IMG/VR virus record: IMGVR_UViG_3300009500_000011
Coordinates: 104,585-168,584 of that record
DNA: 64,000 nucleotides
From: a virus
Lineage: Duplodnaviria > Heunggongvirae > Uroviricota > Caudoviricetes
Reading direction: 5' to 3' (one strand)
Shown here: piece after piece, positions 1-63,738 of the stretch
Layout: every line of letters starts with the position of its first letter
How positions within the stretch are numbered: position 1 is the first letter of the stretch
Notes under the pieces: generated by a model
The model's database searches: none
What the model saw: the letters and a program-made list of their open reading frames with translations, nothing else
What the model was told of the DNA's origin: nothing
Translations under genes and position numbers: made by a program

Positions 1-1
1 A

Positions 2-112
2 GAAGAAATAGATTCTATGCAAAAACAATTAACAGAATTGTGTGAAAATCCTGAAATGGTCTTAGTCTCTCATAGAAGATTAAAAGTTGAAAGGCTTAGA
101 AATCCTAAATAA
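2..112 (+). CDS. C-terminal fragment of an upstream gene (hypothetical)
   Basis: Open frame from window edge to TAA at 110-112 overlapping the next ATG (TAATG). Confidence 0.3.
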   Translation, partial: EEIDSMQKQLTELCENPEMVLVSHRRLKVERLRNPK

Positions 113-1179: not shown

Positions 1180-1366
1180 AAAGGTAGAAATTATGGCTAT
1201 TAGAAAATTTGGAGCCCCTTCAACATCACACGTTAAAGGCATTATTGCTGAAGATGTTCAAGAAGTTTTAATTAAGGCAAGTGAAAAATTATCCCAAACA
1301 GAAAAAGATAAATTAAATGAAAAAGAACATGACAGCAATGAAGATGAAAGAAAAGAAGACAAATAA
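1166..1366 (+). CDS. hypothetical small protein
   Basis: Track ORF overlapping the primase stop; Lys/Glu-rich; weak support. Confidence 0.25.
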   Translation: MQLHKKVEIMAIRKFGAPSTSHVKGIIAEDVQEVLIKASEKLSQTEKDKLNEKEHDSNEDERKEDK

Positions 1367-1730
1367 CCCAGAAGAAAAGGCTTCTTTTATTCTTTCAGAA
1401 TTACAAATTATTTTAAATGAGCAAACCTTATCTGATATTGAAAAAGTCAAAAAGGTTTGCTCTTTAATTGAAAATTACTCTAATTTAGAATTTGCTGAAA
1501 TTGATGATACTGCTGAAAAAAATTGGTATCAAGAACAAATTTTAAATTTAGATGAACAAATATCTTTTTTGCAGGCAGAATTAGATGGTCTTATTAAACA
1601 AGGCTCAATGCTTAATGAAACATCTATTATAAAAATACAGAATGATGCTAGATTAAAGCAATTAGACCTAGATAAAAGAATTTTAGAAAATAAAAAACAA
1701 AGTTACTCCAACAAATTAAAAGGAATTTAA
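1317..1730 (+). CDS. hypothetical coiled-coil protein
   Basis: Track ORF, heptad-like Leu/Ile spacing; no catalytic motif. Confidence 0.35.
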   Translation: MKKNMTAMKMKEKKTNNPEEKASFILSELQIILNEQTLSDIEKVKKVCSLIENYSNLEFAEIDDTAEKNWYQEQILNLDEQISFLQAELDGLIKQGSMLNETSIIKIQNDARLKQLDLDKRILENKKQSYSNKLKGI

Positions 1731-11146: not shown

Positions 11147-11659
11147 ATGGATTTTTTAGTTGGCGATATATTAGTTTTAAAACAAGATGCTCTTGACCTT
11201 GAAGATAAAACTGGCAAAACAATTTTATATCCCGCAGGTTCCGAAGCTGAAATTATACAAATAAAAAATGAAAATGAATATCATCTGCAATTTCCAGATG
11301 CCAAAATATGGCCTCATGACTTGGCAACTTTATTGATTTTCTTTAATCGTAAAAAAGATGGTAAAAATGTTTATACTCGCCAGGTTTCAGAGTATGGTAC
11401 GCCACCAAAAGAGCTTGCTTTTTATATACCTAGAGAAGTTGATTGGCGTAAAAACTATAGGTATACTGTCAGAATTGAAGCAGAAGATTGTGGCTTTAAA
11501 AAATTGATTTGTCCTAGTTGTTTCAATGACCTGGGAGAAAATGGCGAACCAGATAATGAAGGTTTGCAAAAATGTCAAAAATGTGGTACAATGGTTCTCC
11601 CGATAGACCCATTAACATTCAAGTATCCACATGATGACGGAAATGAACACACAACTTAA
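11147..11659 (+). CDS. hypothetical protein with C-terminal CxxC...CxxC zinc ribbon
   Basis: CPSCFNDLG...CQKCGT. Confidence 0.35.
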   Translation: MDFLVGDILVLKQDALDLEDKTGKTILYPAGSEAEIIQIKNENEYHLQFPDAKIWPHDLATLLIFFNRKKDGKNVYTRQVSEYGTPPKELAFYIPREVDWRKNYRYTVRIEAEDCGFKKLICPSCFNDLGENGEPDNEGLQKCQKCGTMVLPIDPLTFKYPHDDGNEHTT

Positions 11660-12935
11660 GAGTAATTCTCAAAAATTCTTAGAAGCAGCAAATTGGGCTC
11701 TTGTAAAAGAACGCTTTGGCGAAGATACAGGAGTTAATATTCGTCGCGCTTCTATAGATAATGTGCAAAATATTACGCTTTTCAATGGTTCAAAAGGTTT
11801 ACTTTTTGATGGATATTCGTTTCCTGAACAAGAACATCTTAAAGGCTTGATTGTTCACGAAGTATTAGGAAGCGCACATTCGGTTATAGCGGCATGTTTT
11901 CCTAAATTCTATAACTATGGCGAACCTGCTGAAAAACAAAAGCATCTTGAATACTTAAATGACGATTCTATGAGTGTGTTATTTGCTAAGAAAGAGGATG
12001 GAGTAAATATTCGTCCTTATTTCAATGCTGCAACAAATAGAGTTGAATTTGCTACGCGCGGAACCTTGCTTGTTGTTTCTGATATTGAAGAAACGTCTAA
12101 TCTTGATTATGGCGCAATGGCTCGTTCAATTGCAGAAGAAAAATATCCAATTCTTTTGGATGAGGAATTTGTAAAGAAATACTCTTGTATTTTTGAAATG
12201 ATTCATCCTGATTCCAAAATTCTTACGGATTATGGACAAAGAAAAGACCTTATTCTTCTGTCAGTATTTGATTTAGAAAATAACTGCTATGAATTTTCGC
12301 GTGAATGGGTAGCATCTTGGGCAAATATAATTGGGTTAAATTATGTTGAATATTGGTTTGACCAATATGCGCCTGTTTCTGAATTTTCTTCTTTAGTTGA
12401 AAAACTACTTAAAAAATGGAACGAAACGGATGTAGAAGGTTCTGTTGTTATATTTGTAAACTCTGAAGCAGAACCTGTATATCGTCTTAAAGTTAAAAAT
12501 GCTTATTATTTACAAATGCTTCGACTTGCAAAATTTTGCACTTTGAAGAATTTAGTCTCAATCATGGAAGAAAATAACTTTTCAAATTGGGAACAACTTC
12601 GTGCATATTTGTACGAAAGCCCTTCAATGAATGAAGAATTAGAAATGGCATATAAGGCTCATTTTGATGTATATGAAAATTGGTTAGCAAATCTTGAAAT
12701 CGAAAAACAAAATGTTTTAAAAGAATATCAAGAATTACCTTCTTTCGAATTACAAAAAGATTTTGCTTTATACATCTTAAAAGATGGCGCTTATCCATAC
12801 AATCCGCTATTCTTTGCTATTCGCAAATGGTTAGCAGAAGCCAAAAATCCTAATTTAGAACAATTCTTTGAAGAAAATGTTAAAGCAACAGTAATGTTGA
12901 AGAAAATCTATCCACTATCGGAAGTAGAGGAATAA
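11631..12935 (+). CDS. RNA ligase (T4 Rnl1-like nucleotidyltransferase)
   Basis: Motif I FAKKEDGVN (KxDG), motif IV-like DVEGSVVIF, motif V-like YRLKVK. Confidence 0.55.
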   Translation: MMTEMNTQLKSNSQKFLEAANWALVKERFGEDTGVNIRRASIDNVQNITLFNGSKGLLFDGYSFPEQEHLKGLIVHEVLGSAHSVIAACFPKFYNYGEPAEKQKHLEYLNDDSMSVLFAKKEDGVNIRPYFNAATNRVEFATRGTLLVVSDIEETSNLDYGAMARSIAEEKYPILLDEEFVKKYSCIFEMIHPDSKILTDYGQRKDLILLSVFDLENNCYEFSREWVASWANIIGLNYVEYWFDQYAPVSEFSSLVEKLLKKWNETDVEGSVVIFVNSEAEPVYRLKVKNAYYLQMLRLAKFCTLKNLVSIMEENNFSNWEQLRAYLYESPSMNEELEMAYKAHFDVYENWLANLEIEKQNVLKEYQELPSFELQKDFALYILKDGAYPYNPLFFAIRKWLAEAKNPNLEQFFEENVKATVMLKKIYPLSEVEE

Positions 12936-18943: not shown

Positions 18944-18948
18944 ATCAT

Positions 18949-19020
18949 TGGAGTGGTAGCATAGAGGTAATGTACCGTTTTATCGCGAGCGGGATGAAGG
19001 TTCGAGTCCTTCCCCTCCAG
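18949..19020 (+). tRNA. tRNA-like gene with 8-nt anticodon loop (TTATCGCG) - identity unclear
   Basis: Acceptor TGGAGTG/CCCTCCA (one mismatch), D-arm GCAT-AGAGGTA-ATGT, stem CCGTT/AGCGG enclosing 8 nt, canonical T-arm GAAGG-TTCGAGT-CCTTC. Confidence 0.35.
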
Positions 19021-19040
19021 TTCTTTTTTAAAAAGAAATC

Positions 19041-45400: not shown

Positions 45401-45519
45401 GTTCGAGTCCATTAAGTGTAGTCGGTACACAACTGTAGTTGTTCCATTCGTTTAAATTTTATTTAATCCTTGGGAATATATTTCTCAAGGATTTTTTTGT
45501 TGTCATAAAGGAAAAAAGA

Positions 45520-47205
45520 ATGAAATACAATACTAAAACAGTAAATGCTGGTCCAGGAACAAAAATGATAAATCTTGCAGGCGGAGAAGCTTTTAAAGTT
45601 GATAATCGTACTGCATTATATTTAACTTCTGCAACTTCTTTAGGTGGCGGTCAAGGAAATAAATATTATGTTTCTGCAAATCAAGAATACAAAAATATTC
45701 TTGAACTAATTGAAAAGGTTTCCGCTCAAGACCCAGAATTTATTTTCCAATTGGCTGCATATTGTCGTCAAGATTTATACCTTCGTAGTATTCCAACGGT
45801 ATTATTTATCGAAGGTATTCGTGCAATGCATAAGCAAAAAAAGGCCAATGCACCATATCCAGTAGATGCATCTAAGTATGCAAATGCTATTTTTGGTCGT
45901 GCTGATGAAATTGTTGAAGCAGTTGCATATTGGCTTGGAGTTGAAGGCCATCACAAATTGCCTTCCCCTCTTCGTAAATCTTTGACCATTGCTTTAAATT
46001 CATTTGATGAATACCGCTTGCTTAAATATAATCAAGAAGATAAGCAAGTTACATTTAAAGATATTGTTCGTCTTGTGCATCCAGAACCAAAAACTGATGT
46101 GCAAAGTGCAATTTTCAAATACTTCATCAAGGATGAAATCAGTCCAGAATTAATGCCAAAGGCAACTGCCCGCAAGGCTTTGCTTTCACGTACTCAATTT
46201 GATGAAGAAGCACAACGCTTGATGAGAGATTCATCTGCTACTTGGGAAACTGTAATTGCTAAATTCGGTTCGACTAAAGAAATTTGGGAAGCAGTTATTC
46301 CAAATATGGGATACATGGCTTTATTACGTAATCTTAATAATTTTCTTAAAAAAGAAGTAGATTTAGATTTAGTAATTCCTCGCCTTGTGAATCCGCAAGA
46401 AATTCGTAAAAGCAAGCAATTGCCTTTCCGTTTTTACACAGCAATGAAACAACTTGGTGTAGAAGATAACAATAAGAATTCTACGATGACATATTATGGA
46501 TATTCCGATTCAGTAAAAACAGCATTTGAAAAATGGCGTAATGTAAATTCTAGCGATGGAATTTCTCGTTTACGTAATGCTCTTGGTGTTGCTATGAATA
46601 TTGCAGTAGAAAATGTTCCTCACCTTTCAGGTCGTACCGTTGTTGCGGCAGACCTTTCTGGTTCTATGAGTCAACCTCTTAATAACAAATCAAATGTAAC
46701 TTATCGTGAAATCGCTTGTATTATGGCTGGTATTGCTGGTTCAATAGCACCAGATAATGTAATTTGTGGATTTGGTTGTTCATTTGCTGTTGCTAAAAAA
46801 GGCAAAGATATTCTTGAAACTGCAAATAATATTGATAAATTAAATGTTGGAATGTCAACGGATGCATGGCGTATTCTTGATTACTTGCTTACAAACAAAA
46901 TTTTTGTAGATAGAGTCATGTATTTTACAGATACACAATGTTATAATTCATATGGGGGCGCAAATTTAAACGAACTTTGGAAAAAATACAAAGTTCTTTG
47001 CCAATCAACTGGTAAAAAAGTTCCTGTTCTTTATGAAGTAAATCTTGCAGGTGGTAATACATCTAGTTTTAATTCTGAACAAAGAGTTGCTACCATTGGT
47101 GGATGGTCTGAAAGAATTTTTGATTTAATTACTACTTATGAAACTGACCCTCGTCAAGCAATAAGTAAAATTAAAGAAAAATATTCAGATTTAGTATCTG
47201 TTTAA
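45520..47205 (+). CDS. Ro60/TROVE-domain protein with C-terminal vWA/MIDAS
   Basis: Size, helical N-terminal repeats and C-terminal VVAADLSGSMS MIDAS motif as in Ro60/Rsr orthologues. Start set at ATG 45520 (AAAGGAAAAAAGA upstream). Confidence 0.5.
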   Translation: MKYNTKTVNAGPGTKMINLAGGEAFKVDNRTALYLTSATSLGGGQGNKYYVSANQEYKNILELIEKVSAQDPEFIFQLAAYCRQDLYLRSIPTVLFIEGIRAMHKQKKANAPYPVDASKYANAIFGRADEIVEAVAYWLGVEGHHKLPSPLRKSLTIALNSFDEYRLLKYNQEDKQVTFKDIVRLVHPEPKTDVQSAIFKYFIKDEISPELMPKATARKALLSRTQFDEEAQRLMRDSSATWETVIAKFGSTKEIWEAVIPNMGYMALLRNLNNFLKKEVDLDLVIPRLVNPQEIRKSKQLPFRFYTAMKQLGVEDNNKNSTMTYYGYSDSVKTAFEKWRNVNSSDGISRLRNALGVAMNIAVENVPHLSGRTVVAADLSGSMSQPLNNKSNVTYREIACIMAGIAGSIAPDNVICGFGCSFAVAKKGKDILETANNIDKLNVGMSTDAWRILDYLLTNKIFVDRVMYFTDTQCYNSYGGANLNELWKKYKVLCQSTGKKVPVLYEVNLAGGNTSSFNSEQRVATIGGWSERIFDLITTYETDPRQAISKIKEKYSDLVSV

Positions 47206-51186: not shown

Positions 51187-51263
51187 GGCCGTATACCAGC
51201 CTAATTTCCTAAATTAGTAACTGTAGATGGACAAGGTAGGTTCGAATCCTATTGCGGCCTCCA
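51187..51263 (+). tRNA. tRNA-like gene with aberrant core (hairpin CTAAT-TTCCTAA-ATTAG = CCT anticodon-like; no canonical D-arm)
   Basis: Perfect acceptor GGCCGTA/TGCGGCC and T-arm GTAGG-TTCGAAT-CCTAT, U73-CCA, 77 nt; the interior does not fold as a cloverleaf by eye. A consensus promoter sits just upstream. Confidence 0.35.
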
Positions 51264-51670: not shown

Positions 51671-52426
51671 ATGCGCGCTCTTGGTTTAAAATCTTTAGTA
51701 GACCCACGTAGGGACCAATATCCAAAATTAATTTTAAAAGATGGTCCAATTCCTTCAAAAGTTGAATATGCTCCTTTATATCCTCCGGTTGATGACCAAG
51801 GAAATTTTGGTACATGTGTTGCATTTGGAACCGGCAAAGTCTTTGAATACTTTTATAATAAGCAGAACAACAAACAACTTTTAATTTCAAAACGTGCCCT
51901 TTTTTCAGAAATTAAACAAAATTTTTACCCTCATGATACTCAAGATGATGGTGCCCAAGTTTCTGATGGATTACAAATATTATCTTTAAATTACATCTTA
52001 GAATCTGATTTTCCTTATGAACCGGCTGGAGATTTTAGTCAGTTTTTACATGGGGTTCCAGCAAATCTTGAAAAAACAGATTTTAAAATAAAACATTTTG
52101 TATCGGTAAATCCCGTCATTGATGATATGAAAAATGCATTATTTCATCAAGGCCCTTTAGCTATCGGAACATCCTTTGCAAACGAATGGATGGAGATTGG
52201 TAGTGATGGTCGTTTACCTGGTTCTAATCTTACATCTGCTGGTGGACATTGCATGTCTATTACCGGATATGATGATGACTTTGTAAATCTAGATGGTTCA
52301 AAAGGTGCTTTCCATTATATTAACAATTGGTCAACTGCTTGGGGCCAAGAAGGATATGCTTGGTTGCCATATAACGTTGATACAGACTTTTTTCCAACCG
52401 ACCTTTTTACAGTTCAAGTTCAATAA
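51671..52426 (+). CDS. papain-like (C1A) cysteine peptidase
   Basis: Catalytic Cys motif QGNFGTCVAFG, His motif GGHCMSITGYDDD, Asn/Trp motif NNWSTAWGQEGYAWLPY. Confidence 0.6.
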   Translation: MRALGLKSLVDPRRDQYPKLILKDGPIPSKVEYAPLYPPVDDQGNFGTCVAFGTGKVFEYFYNKQNNKQLLISKRALFSEIKQNFYPHDTQDDGAQVSDGLQILSLNYILESDFPYEPAGDFSQFLHGVPANLEKTDFKIKHFVSVNPVIDDMKNALFHQGPLAIGTSFANEWMEIGSDGRLPGSNLTSAGGHCMSITGYDDDFVNLDGSKGAFHYINNWSTAWGQEGYAWLPYNVDTDFFPTDLFTVQVQ

Positions 52427-52437
52427 TAATCAAACTG

Positions 52438-52466
52438 TTGACAAAACAGAGGAAATTGATTATACT
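52438..52466 (+). promoter_or_regulatory. consensus promoter TTGACA-N17-TATACT (large ncRNA candidate)
   Basis: Exact match to the 16303 and 16510 promoter type. Confidence 0.55.
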
Positions 52467-52472
52467 ATAGAT

Positions 52473-53097
52473 ATGGTCGTAAGAGACTAGTCGCGGTCTG
52501 AAAAAAAGCCGCCTTGCGTTGACCCTCTTATCACGCCCGTAAACTCGGGACTTAGTAAGTCCTTCCAGAACAAGTCTAATAAACACTCTGGAAGGCAAAC
52601 TTGGGATATAGCAGTTTTGACTGGAAAACCAAGGGCTATAAGACAAGCAGTAGAGCATTAGGCTACTATAAAAAATGCAAACAAACAATCGCAGACTTTT
52701 CTGTAACTGGGTTCAACGACTTCATCGCTCGCGAAGCGGTCGCTGCCTAAAACCTCTCTAGGCTCGTAGAGTAATACGGGCTAAGGGAAACATAGTTTCC
52801 CTACCTTATCCGTGGGGCCACACGGAAGGTTCGATTCACGTTTCAGAGGTTACTACTCTGTAGCACCATAAACGAGAATATTACCCTTATGAATAAGGGC
52901 GACCGGAGGGCTAGGTCGTAAATGGCGCTCATTGTAGGCTGAAATTTCCTACAAAACCAAGTCCTGGTTGAGGGAATAAATATCAGGAAGCTTGTATAAT
53001 CAAATAGTTCGAAGATTCTAGGACTCGGGGGGCGGCTCCCCGAATATTCCACCAAATAATAATAAACCTTCAATGTAAAAGTTGAAGGTTTATTTAT
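52473..53097 (+). ncRNA. candidate large structured noncoding RNA (~620 nt)
   Basis: Consensus promoter TTGACA(52438)-N17-TATACT(52461-66); terminator AAACCTTCAA-N8-TTGAAGGTTT+ATTTATT (53064-53097); locally elevated GC; many local helices; no credible ORF on either strand. Confidence 0.45.
53064..53097 (+). terminator. intrinsic terminator closing the large ncRNA candidate
   Basis: AAACCTTCAA-TGTAAAAG-TTGAAGGTTT + ATTTATT. Confidence 0.55.
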
Positions 53098-53125
53098 TGA
53101 CATTCTTAGGTAATTCTGATATAAT
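53097..53125 (+). promoter_or_regulatory. consensus promoter TTGACA-N17-TATAAT
   Basis: Perfect consensus 7 nt before ATG 53132. Confidence 0.55.
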
Positions 53126-53131
53126 ATTGAT

Positions 53132-53335
53132 ATGTACCCAATGAATATTCAAGTAATTTATAAAGATATTCCTGGTTTTAAAGGAATGGGTCGCGTTGTC
53201 GGTGTTGCATCTTATGCTTTTCCTGGAATGGGCTGCATGTATATTGTTGAAGACTTAGATGGTAATATTCCGACCAAAGAATATCCTTATAAAACTTTTA
53301 TTGTTCAAGAATCTTTATTACATTTTTGTACTTAA
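53132..53335 (+). CDS. hypothetical protein
   Basis: Track ORF just downstream of a consensus promoter. Confidence 0.35.
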   Translation: MYPMNIQVIYKDIPGFKGMGRVVGVASYAFPGMGCMYIVEDLDGNIPTKEYPYKTFIVQESLLHFCT

Positions 53336-53538
53336 TAAAAATGACAGTTAAAGAATTAATTTTGGGATTATCTAAATTTGACGAAAATTTTACTATTGTT
53401 ACCAGGACTGGAAAATATTATTTAGCAGATAAAGTAACAACCGTTGAAGATGGATGGTTTGATGAAGAAAATATGATTTTTTATATTGAATCTTCATTTA
53501 AAGACATAAATATTAAAAACGCTGTATTAATAGAGTGA
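53326..53538 (+). CDS. hypothetical protein
   Basis: Track ORF. Confidence 0.3.
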   Translation: MYLIKMTVKELILGLSKFDENFTIVTRTGKYYLADKVTTVEDGWFDEENMIFYIESSFKDINIKNAVLIE

Positions 53539-53624
53539 TGGGTGAATTGGTCAAACCACCTTCCTGCTAAGAAGGCGCGACCCCTCAAAAGGTCTTCCGG
53601 GTTCGAGTCCCGGTCACTCTGCCA
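53532..53624 (+). tRNA. tRNA-Ser (anticodon GCT), type II
   Basis: Acceptor AGAGTGA/TCACTCT, stem CCTTC/GAAGG, loop CTGCTAA, 21-nt variable arm with GACC/GGTC stem, T-arm CCGGG-TTCGAGT-CCCGG, G73-CCA. Confidence 0.7.
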
Positions 53625-61515: not shown

Positions 61516-61716
61516 ATGTTCTGCGGTAAAAAACCAACTCAAGATGAAATAATGAAAATCAAAGAGTTTGCTGCTTTCTTAAGAAATATAAATTCTATCG
61601 AAAAAGATGAGAACTTGACAAAAGAAGAAAAAAAAGATAAACTAAACGAAATTATAGCGCAAGCAAATAATAAAATACAAAAAGAATGGGAAAATGGCAG
61701 AAAAAAACGACGATAA
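61516..61716 (+). CDS. hypothetical protein
   Basis: Track ORF. Confidence 0.3.
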   Translation: MFCGKKPTQDEIMKIKEFAAFLRNINSIEKDENLTKEEKKDKLNEIIAQANNKIQKEWENGRKKRR

Positions 61717-61924
61717 GTTTGAACTAAAAGGTTTTGTACTTAAATCACATCCCGGAGCAACTTTTTCAGTTCGATTAGAAGGAATAGAAAAAGATGTTCT
61801 TTGTCATCTTTCTGGGAAAATGCGAATGAATAATATTCGTGTTCTAGAAGGTGATACTGTGGATGTTGAAATGGATGTATATGATTTATCTAGGGGTAAA
61901 ATCATATTTAGGTATAAGAAATAG
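61694..61924 (+). CDS. hypothetical protein
   Basis: Track ORF. Confidence 0.3.
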   Translation: MAEKNDDKFELKGFVLKSHPGATFSVRLEGIEKDVLCHLSGKMRMNNIRVLEGDTVDVEMDVYDLSRGKIIFRYKK

Positions 61925-63219: not shown

Positions 63220-63738
63220 TTGTGTATGAAAATTACTGATAAATACGTTTTGTTTTTTGGGCCAGAAGATTGTCCTTCCCAATGGTATCCTGTAAAGTTC
63301 AAAACTAGATTATTCGATTTTGAAAATTTAGAATTTAATTGTAGTGAACAATTCATGATGGCTGCAAAAGCATTATTCTTTGATGACAAAGAATCATTTG
63401 TTAAAATCATGAATACGTCTAGCCCCAATCAACAAAAATCTTTAGGTCGAAATGTTCAAGGTTTTGATAAAGATAAATGGAATGCTGTTTGCCGACCTTT
63501 AGTGACAGTTGGCAATATGGCTAAATTTACTCAAAATGATGATTTAAAGCAGTTTATGTTAGACAATGAGGGGAAAATTTTTGTTGAGGCTTCTCCTTAT
63601 GACGATATTTGGGGTGTTAAACTTGGGGCCAACGACCCTAGAATTTTAGACCCTTCTAAATGGAGAGGGACTAATTGGCTTGGAGAAATTTTGACTAGAA
63701 TTAATATTATAATTTGCAAAAAGGAGAAGTCAAAATGA
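63220..63738 (+). CDS. NADAR-domain (YbiA/DUF1768-like) protein
   Basis: FN.SEQFMMAAKALFFDD ... KFTQN..L...L..EGKIFVEASPYDDIWGVKLGANDP match the NADAR signature blocks. Confidence 0.55.
   Translation: MCMKITDKYVLFFGPEDCPSQWYPVKFKTRLFDFENLEFNCSEQFMMAAKALFFDDKESFVKIMNTSSPNQQKSLGRNVQGFDKDKWNAVCRPLVTVGNMAKFTQNDDLKQFMLDNEGKIFVEASPYDDIWGVKLGANDPRILDPSKWRGTNWLGEILTRINIIICKKEKSK

Follow-up and report, generated by a model that had tools for sequence, protein, structure and literature searches.

The 64,000-nucleotide (nt) stretch of viral DNA analyzed here (the window; positions 104,585 to 168,584 of IMG/VR record IMGVR_UViG_3300009500_000011) very probably carries, at 52603-53054 of its plus strand, a phage-encoded one-piece transfer-messenger RNA (tmRNA, ssrA) of 452 nt, as judged from its sequence and predicted fold. 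The gene lies in a gap of 705 nt (52427-53131) between a C1 peptidase gene (51671-52426) and the next open reading frame (ORF; 53132-53335). An earlier reading of the bare sequence (the original prediction) had placed here, among the phage tRNA genes, a gene for a structured non-coding RNA equipped with a promoter and a terminator of its own, which our analysis supports. It had also noted an elevated GC content, and this was measured at 0.458 for 52603-53054 and 0.469 for the leader preceding it, against 0.326 for the window as a whole. Including the leader, the RNA amounts to 620 nt. The unconstrained fold of the 452-nt core has a z-score of -3.95, none of 100 shuffles being equally stable. 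The tRNA-Ser gene named as a neighbor was confirmed at 53532-53624.

To identify the RNA, a permissive Rfam scan (E up to 10) was run on 52300-53250. The only substantial match was the tmRNA family RF00023, whose model aligned from end to end (1-374 of 374) with 52603-53054 of the plus strand at 45.7 bits. This family was among the models that the original prediction had proposed to check; the others it listed, GOLLD, ROOL, HEARO, group I/II intron and RNase P, gave no match in the scan, and neither a riboswitch in the tmRNA nor any family within the leader was detected. Against the permuted tmRNA model RF04321, the tag region scored only 18.8 bits (E = 0.16; cut-off 47). A two-piece tmRNA was rejected because this score is far below the cut-off and because the acceptor stem closes perfectly in the one-piece arrangement; low-threshold ARAGORN calls of a 'permuted tmRNA' and of tRNAs within the region were dismissed as noise.

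The anatomy of the RNA is that of a tmRNA (Table 1; tmRNA numbering plus 52602 gives window coordinates). The tRNA-like acceptor end is complete, with a 7-bp stem, G3:U70, A73 and a 3' CCA; G3:U70 is an identity element for alanyl-tRNA synthetase (AlaRS). The long helix H2, flanked by the conserved GAC and GGAC, is present, G53021 serving both as the final base of H2 and as the first base of GGAC (53021-53024). An equivalent H2 forms in 12 of the 12 relatives tested, from differing sequences. An unconstrained minimum free energy fold recovers the acceptor stem and the T arm as well as the three segments of H2. The complementary segment CGGGG-GGCGGCT-CCCCG, to which the original prediction had drawn attention, is indeed present (53026-53042) but is actually the T arm of this tRNA-like domain. 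The motif GGAAGGTTCGATTC, which had been likened to a tRNA T-loop, is found at 52824-52837, in the interior, and does not form a T arm, as its flanks are not complementary; on steric reasoning, a tight pseudoknot PK2 involving this motif was considered implausible.

The messenger-like part begins with pseudoknot PK1, which agrees with the Rfam consensus in topology and position. It lies at nt 45-50 in 15 of 16 sequences tested, the stem sequences being different, and none of 5000 shuffles of nt 31-100 yielded a knot of 5+5 Watson-Crick pairs with this geometry there. The GCA resume codon follows 12 nt 3' of PK1, and at a lowered threshold the resume-codon consensus of ARAGORN selects the same frame, that of ADFSVTGFNDFIAREAVAA. 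This frame is short, has a non-AUG Ala start and an in-frame stop, and encodes a hydrophobic C-terminus ending in Ala-Ala, as expected of a tmRNA tag.

Table 1. Features of the tmRNA locus and of selected elements elsewhere in the window.
Feature	Position in window	tmRNA nt	Strand	Remarks
Sigma-70-type promoter TTGACA-N17-TATACT	52438-52466		+	11/12 consensus positions; predicted start near 52473
Predicted 5' precursor leader, ~130 nt	52473-52602		+	start deduced from promoter
9-bp leader hairpin	52561-52569 / 52587-52595		+	just 5' of mature end
Acceptor stem, 5' strand GGGAUAU	52603-52609	1-7	+	pairs with 53044-53050; G1-C72, G2-C71, G3:U70
D-loop analogue AGCAGUUUUGAC	52610-52621	8-19	+	AG in place of GG of standard tmRNAs
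Helix H2, 5' strand CUGGAA, GGGCUAU, CAAGC	52621-52648		+	partners 53016-53021, 53004-53010, 52990-52994
Pseudoknot PK1 AGUAG-A-GCAUU-AGG-CUACU-AUAAAA-AAUGC	52649-52678	47-76	+	H-type, 5+5 Watson-Crick pairs
Tag frame, GCA resume codon to UAA	52691-52750; stop 52748-52750		+	encodes 19 residues, ADFSVTGFNDFIAREAVAA, ending VAA
Stop-codon hairpin	52745-52763		+	stop at top
Hairpin-rich interior	52745-52989		+	place of H5 and PK2-PK4 in standard tmRNAs
Interior hairpins	52761-52782, 52784-52802, 52809-52826, 52884-52899, 52899-52919, 52932-52954		+	
Helix H2, 3' strand GCUUG, AUAGUUC, UUCUAG	52990-53021		+	just before conserved GGAC
T arm, 6-bp stem UCGGGG/CCCCGA, 7-nt loop GGCGGCU	53025-53043		+	Rfam: 9 nt against 7 in the model
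Acceptor stem, 3' strand AUAUUCC, then A73 and encoded CCA	53044-53054	442-448 (stem)	+	from sequence and Rfam alignment
Intrinsic terminator, 13-bp hairpin and U-rich tail	53062-53098		+	arms 53062-53074 / 53081-53093; starts 8 nt after CCA
Next promoter TTGACA-N17-(TG)TATAAT	53097-53125		+	12/12 consensus; downstream gene; 3' boundary of tmRNA unit
Promoter-family sites, often TTGACAAAAC...TAnnnT	incl. 16510, 24077, 24939, 50007, 52438, 58092, 58543, 62537		+	
T4 Rnl1-type RNA ligase	11631-12935		+	
Ro60/TROVE homolog	45439-47205		+	Pfam TROVE E = 4e-32, Ro60 vWA domain; ~5 kb 5' of tmRNA
IF-1 homolog	61694-61924		+	eIF-1a domain, E = 9e-19
NADAR-domain protein	63220-63738		+	

The comparison with related genomes that the original prediction had proposed revealed substitutions that preserve the structure. 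An independently assembled ENA contig of 274,834 bp (L002/L003; ERZ25039479 contig_29692) is 99% related and carries the tmRNA locus in synteny. Five substitutions separate L002 from the window inside the RNA, one in a loop and four in stems whose pairing is kept: a G-to-A change in H2 converts a G-U pair to A-U, CCCUUA/UAAGGG in the interior becomes CUCUUA/UAAGAG by a compensatory C-G to U-A replacement (two positions), and an A-U pair of the hairpin at 52784 becomes G-U. Beyond this near-identical pair the nearest relative is L069, a peat-moss metagenome contig of 60% GC, with an RNA of 407 nt that is identical to the window RNA at 277 of 452 nt in global alignment and shares with it the D-region AGCAG...UUUUGAC. 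The L069 tag, ANDFSIQGFNEFLAASATKELAVA, is homologous to the window tag. The 12 aligned codons, DFS(V/I)(T/Q)GFN(D/E)F(I/L)A, comprise four identical ones, four with synonymous differences only and four with conservative replacements. As four of the eight codon differences are thus synonymous, selection on the peptide, the signature of a translated sequence, is indicated.

Further relatives were sought along several routes. No match among GenBank phages was obtained by blastn of the region (50,697 records) or by megablast of the surrounding 24 kb, nor with a short T-arm query, in this last case probably because of low-complexity masking. In IMG/VR, no exact match to the T-arm 19-mer was obtained; a degenerate pattern back-translated from the tag motif found no further relatives, and a 5'-end motif pattern gave only five chance matches, all lacking a tmRNA 3' end. 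The C1 peptidase had only remote phage matches by tblastn and no IMG/VR relative by pattern search. In four contigs whose peptidases are 47-59% identical (L004, L005, L007 and L008), the 20 kb taken contained no tmRNA, the synteny of Ro60 and peptidase genes being kept. Sequence-only nhmmer profiles built from the relatives placed their best 5'-end match in the window at 52610 with E = 0.2, so that primary sequence alone is insufficient for identification.

The original prediction had called the promoter at 52438 perfect; it is present at that position, with 11 of 12 consensus matches. Sites of the form TTGACA-N16-18-TAnnnT occur 15 times in the window, all on the plus strand, against a chance expectation of 5.05 +/- 2.08 for both strands, and several of the others stand directly 5' of tRNA genes; the family can be written TTGACA(AAAC)-N16-18-TAnnnT. 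In L002 both hexamers are unchanged and the 17-nt spacer carries four substitutions. The stretch between the predicted start and the mature 5' end would be a precursor leader; its fold has a free energy of -35.3 kcal/mol (z = -2.4), and a C-to-U change in L002 converts a C-G pair of the 9-bp leader stem to U-G. The strong terminator hairpin of the original prediction held up, with its 13 bp and the U-rich tail 3' of it; at about -16 kcal/mol (z = -4.2) it is more stable than any of its shuffles, and it is kept in L002. A simple terminator scan reports this hairpin on the minus strand only, because the stem runs into the T-run. The next promoter ends 6 nt 5' of the ATG of the ORF at 53132, an arrangement also kept in L002, and the downstream transcript is therefore predicted to be leaderless.

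Several observations weigh against a tmRNA. The Rfam score is below the RF00023 gathering cut-off of 47, and the locus is missing from a gathering-mode scan of the window. An ordinary tRNA of 75 nt in L007 scores 44.7 bits with the same model; the score or E-value alone therefore proves nothing, and the case rests on anatomy. Indeed, tRNAs are the commonest false Rfam matches for tmRNA (Hudson et al., PMC4131195). ARAGORN does not call the native sequence, either by default or with -ps: its default run finds 32 tRNAs in the window, Rfam at gathering threshold 29, and neither reports anything in the gap. The T stem has 6 bp and the T-loop lacks equivalents of the near-universal U54, U55 and A58, so that the arm departs from the standard form of a 5-bp stem with a UUCRANY-type loop. 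PK2-PK4 could not be assigned among the roughly 10 hairpins (5 bp or longer) that occupy 52745-52989. The relatives found comprise one that is near-identical and one that is clearly related and distant. Finally, a tblastn search of the 64-kb window for SmpB, with an approximate E. coli query, returned nothing below E = 2.9.

The silence of ARAGORN was traced to the T arm. When this arm was exchanged in silico for a 5-bp stem with a UUCGAAU loop, ARAGORN called a tmRNA at exactly 52603-53054, and the same exchange rescued calls for L059, L016 and L069. The program remained silent with the standard loop on the 6-bp stem or with the D-loop alone restored. The miss is thus explained by the non-standard arm, with its 6-bp stem and GGCGGCU loop. 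One result of the exchange is also unfavorable: the modified sequence is assigned another tag, VGPHGRFDSRFRGYYSVAP (nt 210-269; 52812-52871). This 19-codon frame was judged fortuitous, since it has a GUG start 134 nt after PK1, an Ala-Pro end and no counterpart in L069; it overlaps the GGAAGGTTCGATTC motif.

To see how widely this T arm occurs, we searched with the pattern GGGGGCGGCTCCC-N7-TCCACCA, which matched six IMG/VR viral contigs and 44 bacterial loci; 43 of the latter have a tmRNA-like end and belong almost exclusively to Eremiobacterota/WPS-2 genomes, and the remaining one (L054) was rejected as a chance match. A refined pattern matched 16 metagenome contigs. Loci L011-L016, L017-L060 and L082-L140 represent the tmRNAs with a 6-bp T stem and G as second T-loop base in Eremiobacterota genomes and IMG/VR viral contigs. 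Rfam calls all 13 tmRNA-like loci scanned as tmRNA, with 101-120 bits for seven Eremiobacterota loci, 60-110 for five viral contigs and 85 for L012, a permuted tmRNA, and ARAGORN made no call in the 20 loci tested. All four Watson-Crick forms (U-A, A-U, C-G and G-C) occur at the outermost position of the T stem, which is paired in 20 of 20 distinct related sequences. In the table of these sequences the acceptor pairing was imposed by the placement of the 5' end and is not independent evidence; H2a pairs throughout in the register anchored by GAC and GGAC, which the choice of sequences did not impose. The presence of the same arm in Rfam-called tmRNAs, together with the covarying sixth pair, therefore points to a recurrent variant elbow and not to loss or decay.

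In L017-L060, the tmRNA with the GGCGGCU loop and 6-bp T stem appears to be the cellular tmRNA of Eremiobacterota, with the tag ANNEYALAA; ARAGORN called none of the 13 loci of this set that were tested. Eremiobacterota and viral tmRNAs of this type resemble the window RNA in their identical T arm, N-CGGGG-GGCGGCU-CCCCG-N', in an AG(Y)AG D-loop analogue and in overall plan. The Eremiobacterota RNAs differ in being shorter (354-361 nt against 452), richer in GC (56-62% against 46%) and better scored (101-120 bits against 45.7), with ANNEYALAA in place of a long tag. The 3' end is duplicated in several Eremiobacterota genomes (L051; L039 and L050), as expected for islands integrated in ssrA.

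A wider pattern restricted to a single stem sequence, GGAC-N-CGGGG-N7-CCCCG-N5-TCCACCA, matched 64 IMG/VR contigs. Their T-loops are UGCGACU (22), GGCAGUU (11), GGCGGCU (5), GGCAGCA (5) and similar sequences, the UUC type occurring only four times. Loops with G as the second base go with a ...UAG-N-UUCGAC D-region, and three of the four UUC-type loops with ...UGG...UUCGAC, the fourth having AGG; across viral tmRNAs, the choice of AG or GG in the D-loop analogue tracks the second T-loop base (G or U). The first and fifth T-loop bases also switch jointly, being either U...A or G...G. In tRNA numbering, these two couplings correspond to the 18:55 and 54:58 elbow contacts, with the 19:56 contact retained. 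ARAGORN calls one of 62 of these tmRNAs. Rfam calls all 16 contigs sampled, at 65-125 bits, in one-piece or permuted form, and most lie inside tRNA arrays.

It is conceivable, and we advance it tentatively, that the window RNA belongs to a large and so far unremarked class of tmRNAs with an acceptor/T helix of 7+6 bp, one pair more than the standard, and a re-wired elbow (T-loops GGCRGNN and UGCGACU; AG for GG), frequent in phages and apparently fixed in Eremiobacterota. If so, the longer helix and changed elbow could alter how these RNAs fit SmpB, EF-Tu or the ribosome, and the class would be a natural experiment in how much change the elbow and the 12-bp acceptor/T helix tolerate under working trans-translation. 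Surveys of phage tmRNAs that rely on ARAGORN probably undercount them, and published values based on it (e.g., 2.3% of phage genomes) would in that case be too low. In phage phAss-1 (GenBank OQ749652.1), positions 92196-92533 of the minus strand share 86% identity with the viral tmRNA of L013, a member of the GGCGGCU T-loop class; this locus is unannotated in the record, and a tmRNA is unmentioned in the paper describing the phage. One contig of the series, L133 (IMGVR_UViG_3300041809_000571, 316,945 bp), also encodes a bacterial class A RNase P RNA (1231-1539, minus strand, 191 bits), with a tmRNA (124 bits) and over 15 arrayed tRNA genes alongside it.

Among the alternatives, the one that survives best is that the locus is derived from a tmRNA and no longer serves trans-translation. 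It would then be a copy undergoing decay, or else a decoy binding SmpB, AlaRS or EF-Tu and thereby inhibiting host rescue. The non-standard T-loop, the 6-bp T stem, the sub-threshold Rfam score and the failure of the approximate query to detect SmpB in the window would all suit such a molecule, and there is a precedent in the molecule of mycobacteriophage DS6A, which consists of the tRNA-like domain only, and in the inhibitory mimic of this domain discussed in PMC4131195. We nevertheless consider it improbable. The molecule is retained in full and not just as a tRNA-like domain, with PK1, resume codon and tag frame intact; the tag is conserved with L069 mostly through synonymous differences, and the L002 substitutions preserve structure. 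The same T arm is, moreover, the sole form of tmRNA in the Eremiobacterota loci, where it presumably belongs to a working cellular tmRNA.

The original prediction had favored a large ornate RNA, either akin to GOLLD, ROOL or HEARO or of a new class. On such a reading, the likeness to tmRNA would be superficial. Such RNAs are likewise large and structured, often phage-borne and often near tRNA genes, as are the 620 nt described here, which score below threshold for every Rfam family. This reading failed, and its probability is now minimal: no such family matched in the permissive scan or in the gathering-mode scan of the window, the fold is that of a tmRNA, whose defining landmarks are readable throughout in the correct order and spacing, and the exchange of the T arm suffices for an ARAGORN call.

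Hardly any weight can be given to an integration relic, a captured fragment of a host ssrA, even though ssrA is a favored integration site (PMC4131195), temperate elements that insert there bear a copy of the ssrA 3' end as attachment site, and duplicated 3' ends occur in the Eremiobacterota genomes named above. The gene is full-length, has a promoter of the phage family and a terminator of its own, carries an AT-rich acceptor stem (GGGAUAU) that matches phage composition, and is syntenic in the second, independently assembled 275-kb contig; no integrase lies nearby in the gene lists of L001 and L002.

A missed protein gene is equally far-fetched. ORFs of 93 amino acids (aa; minus strand, 52407-52688), 86 aa (minus strand, 52843-53103) and 49 aa (plus strand, 52601-52750) exist mechanically, but none has a Pfam match, no gene was annotated in the gap by the gene callers behind the two independent assemblies (L001 and L002), the 93-aa frame is shifted in L002 by a 1-nt indel that shortens it to 66 aa, and the 49-aa ORF is merely the tag frame extended 5' through PK1. 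The original prediction, which had regarded the gap as free of credible ORFs and a protein-coding gene in homologous phages as its refutation, is thus upheld on this point.

As a tmRNA, the window RNA shares with the bacterial one-piece form (SsrA, RF00023) the tRNA-Ala-like domain, the long H2, a resume codon for Ala just 3' of PK1, a short tag with an Ala-Ala end and a stop codon, and a 3' half rich in hairpins or pseudoknots. It differs in length (452 nt; model 374), in its tag of 19 residues (consensus ~10), in the T arm (6 bp and GGCGGCU where the family has 5 bp and UUCRANY), in a D-loop analogue that is 2 nt shorter with AG for GG, and in an AU-rich acceptor; its score falls 1.3 bits under the cut-off, and it is phage-borne behind a leader of ~130 nt. 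Phage tmRNAs are known from Bxz1-group mycobacteriophages and Bacillus phage G (PMC4131195) and from huge phages (PMC7162821). The OM43 phage Melnitz and other isolates also carry one, and an ARAGORN-based survey found tmRNAs in 402 of 18,146 phage genomes (PMC9004378). The window tmRNA is a new, divergent example of these documented phage tmRNAs. As in those, a complete ssrA lies among tRNA and translation genes in a large phage genome of lytic type, and, as in Melnitz, it is located 3' of a sigma-70-type (early-type) promoter; it differs in that they were found by ARAGORN, which is blind to the window tmRNA, and the window RNA is not permuted.

We propose that the host RNA polymerase would transcribe a precursor, from which RNase P would remove the ~130-nt leader at G52603 and exonucleases would trim the 3' trailer to the CCA. 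AlaRS would charge the tmRNA with alanine via G3:U70, and SmpB (the host's, or the product of a phage gene outside the window) together with EF-Tu would bring it to ribosomes that have stalled at the 3' ends of broken, non-stop mRNAs. The nascent chain would pass to the alanine of the tmRNA, and the ribosome would switch to the tag frame at 52691 and terminate at the UAA, appending the tag ADFSVTGFNDFIAREAVAA. The ribosome would be freed, and the protein marked by its C-terminal Ala-Ala for proteolysis of the ClpXP type. For the phage, the benefit would be that ribosomes are kept free while degradation of host mRNA yields many non-stop messages, and the 32 tRNAs, IF-1 and RNA ligase of the window fit such a role in ribosome availability. 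An alternative put forward for the Melnitz tmRNA is the selective tagging of host proteins (PMC9004378). What looked like a mystery RNA would thus be an ordinary though divergent gene, a phage ribosome-rescue RNA beside 32 tRNAs, IF-1, an RNA ligase and Ro60, adding to the picture of large phages that take over translation quality control.

With 33% GC, 32 tRNA genes, a primase, a ribonucleotide reductase and AAA ATPases, in addition to the genes in Table 1, the content of the window fits the part of a huge phage (~275 kb) that serves replication and translation; the IF-1, NADAR and RNA ligase genes count among those for translation and RNA repair. In L002, a protein with a Clp_N domain is encoded ~9 kb 3' of the tmRNA. 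The Ro60 homolog is syntenic with the C1 peptidase also in distant relatives (L007, 5754-7346; L008, 7635-9371), and no Y-RNA partner was identified for it. Between these two genes in the window lies a tRNA-like element of 77 nt (51187-51263, plus strand), with a 7-bp acceptor stem GGCCGUA/UGCGGCC, a standard T arm (loop UUCGAAU), a long variable region, CCU in an anticodon-like loop and UCCA at its end, but no D arm. ARAGORN calls it in mitochondrial mode only, and its one Rfam match is tRNA-Sec, with 22 bits (E = 0.67). The element could be an unusual tRNA or else a tRNA mimic of the Y-RNA type, tied to the Ro60 gene. A tRNA-like sequence at 14301-14386 of L008 (plus strand) scores 39.4 bits with the tRNA-Sec model, below its cut-off of 47. 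At 18948-19021 of the window (plus strand), ARAGORN places a tRNA with a four-base anticodon (atcg) and no assigned identity, to which Rfam gives only 35.2 bits as a tRNA; it may have an 8-nt anticodon loop or be degenerate.

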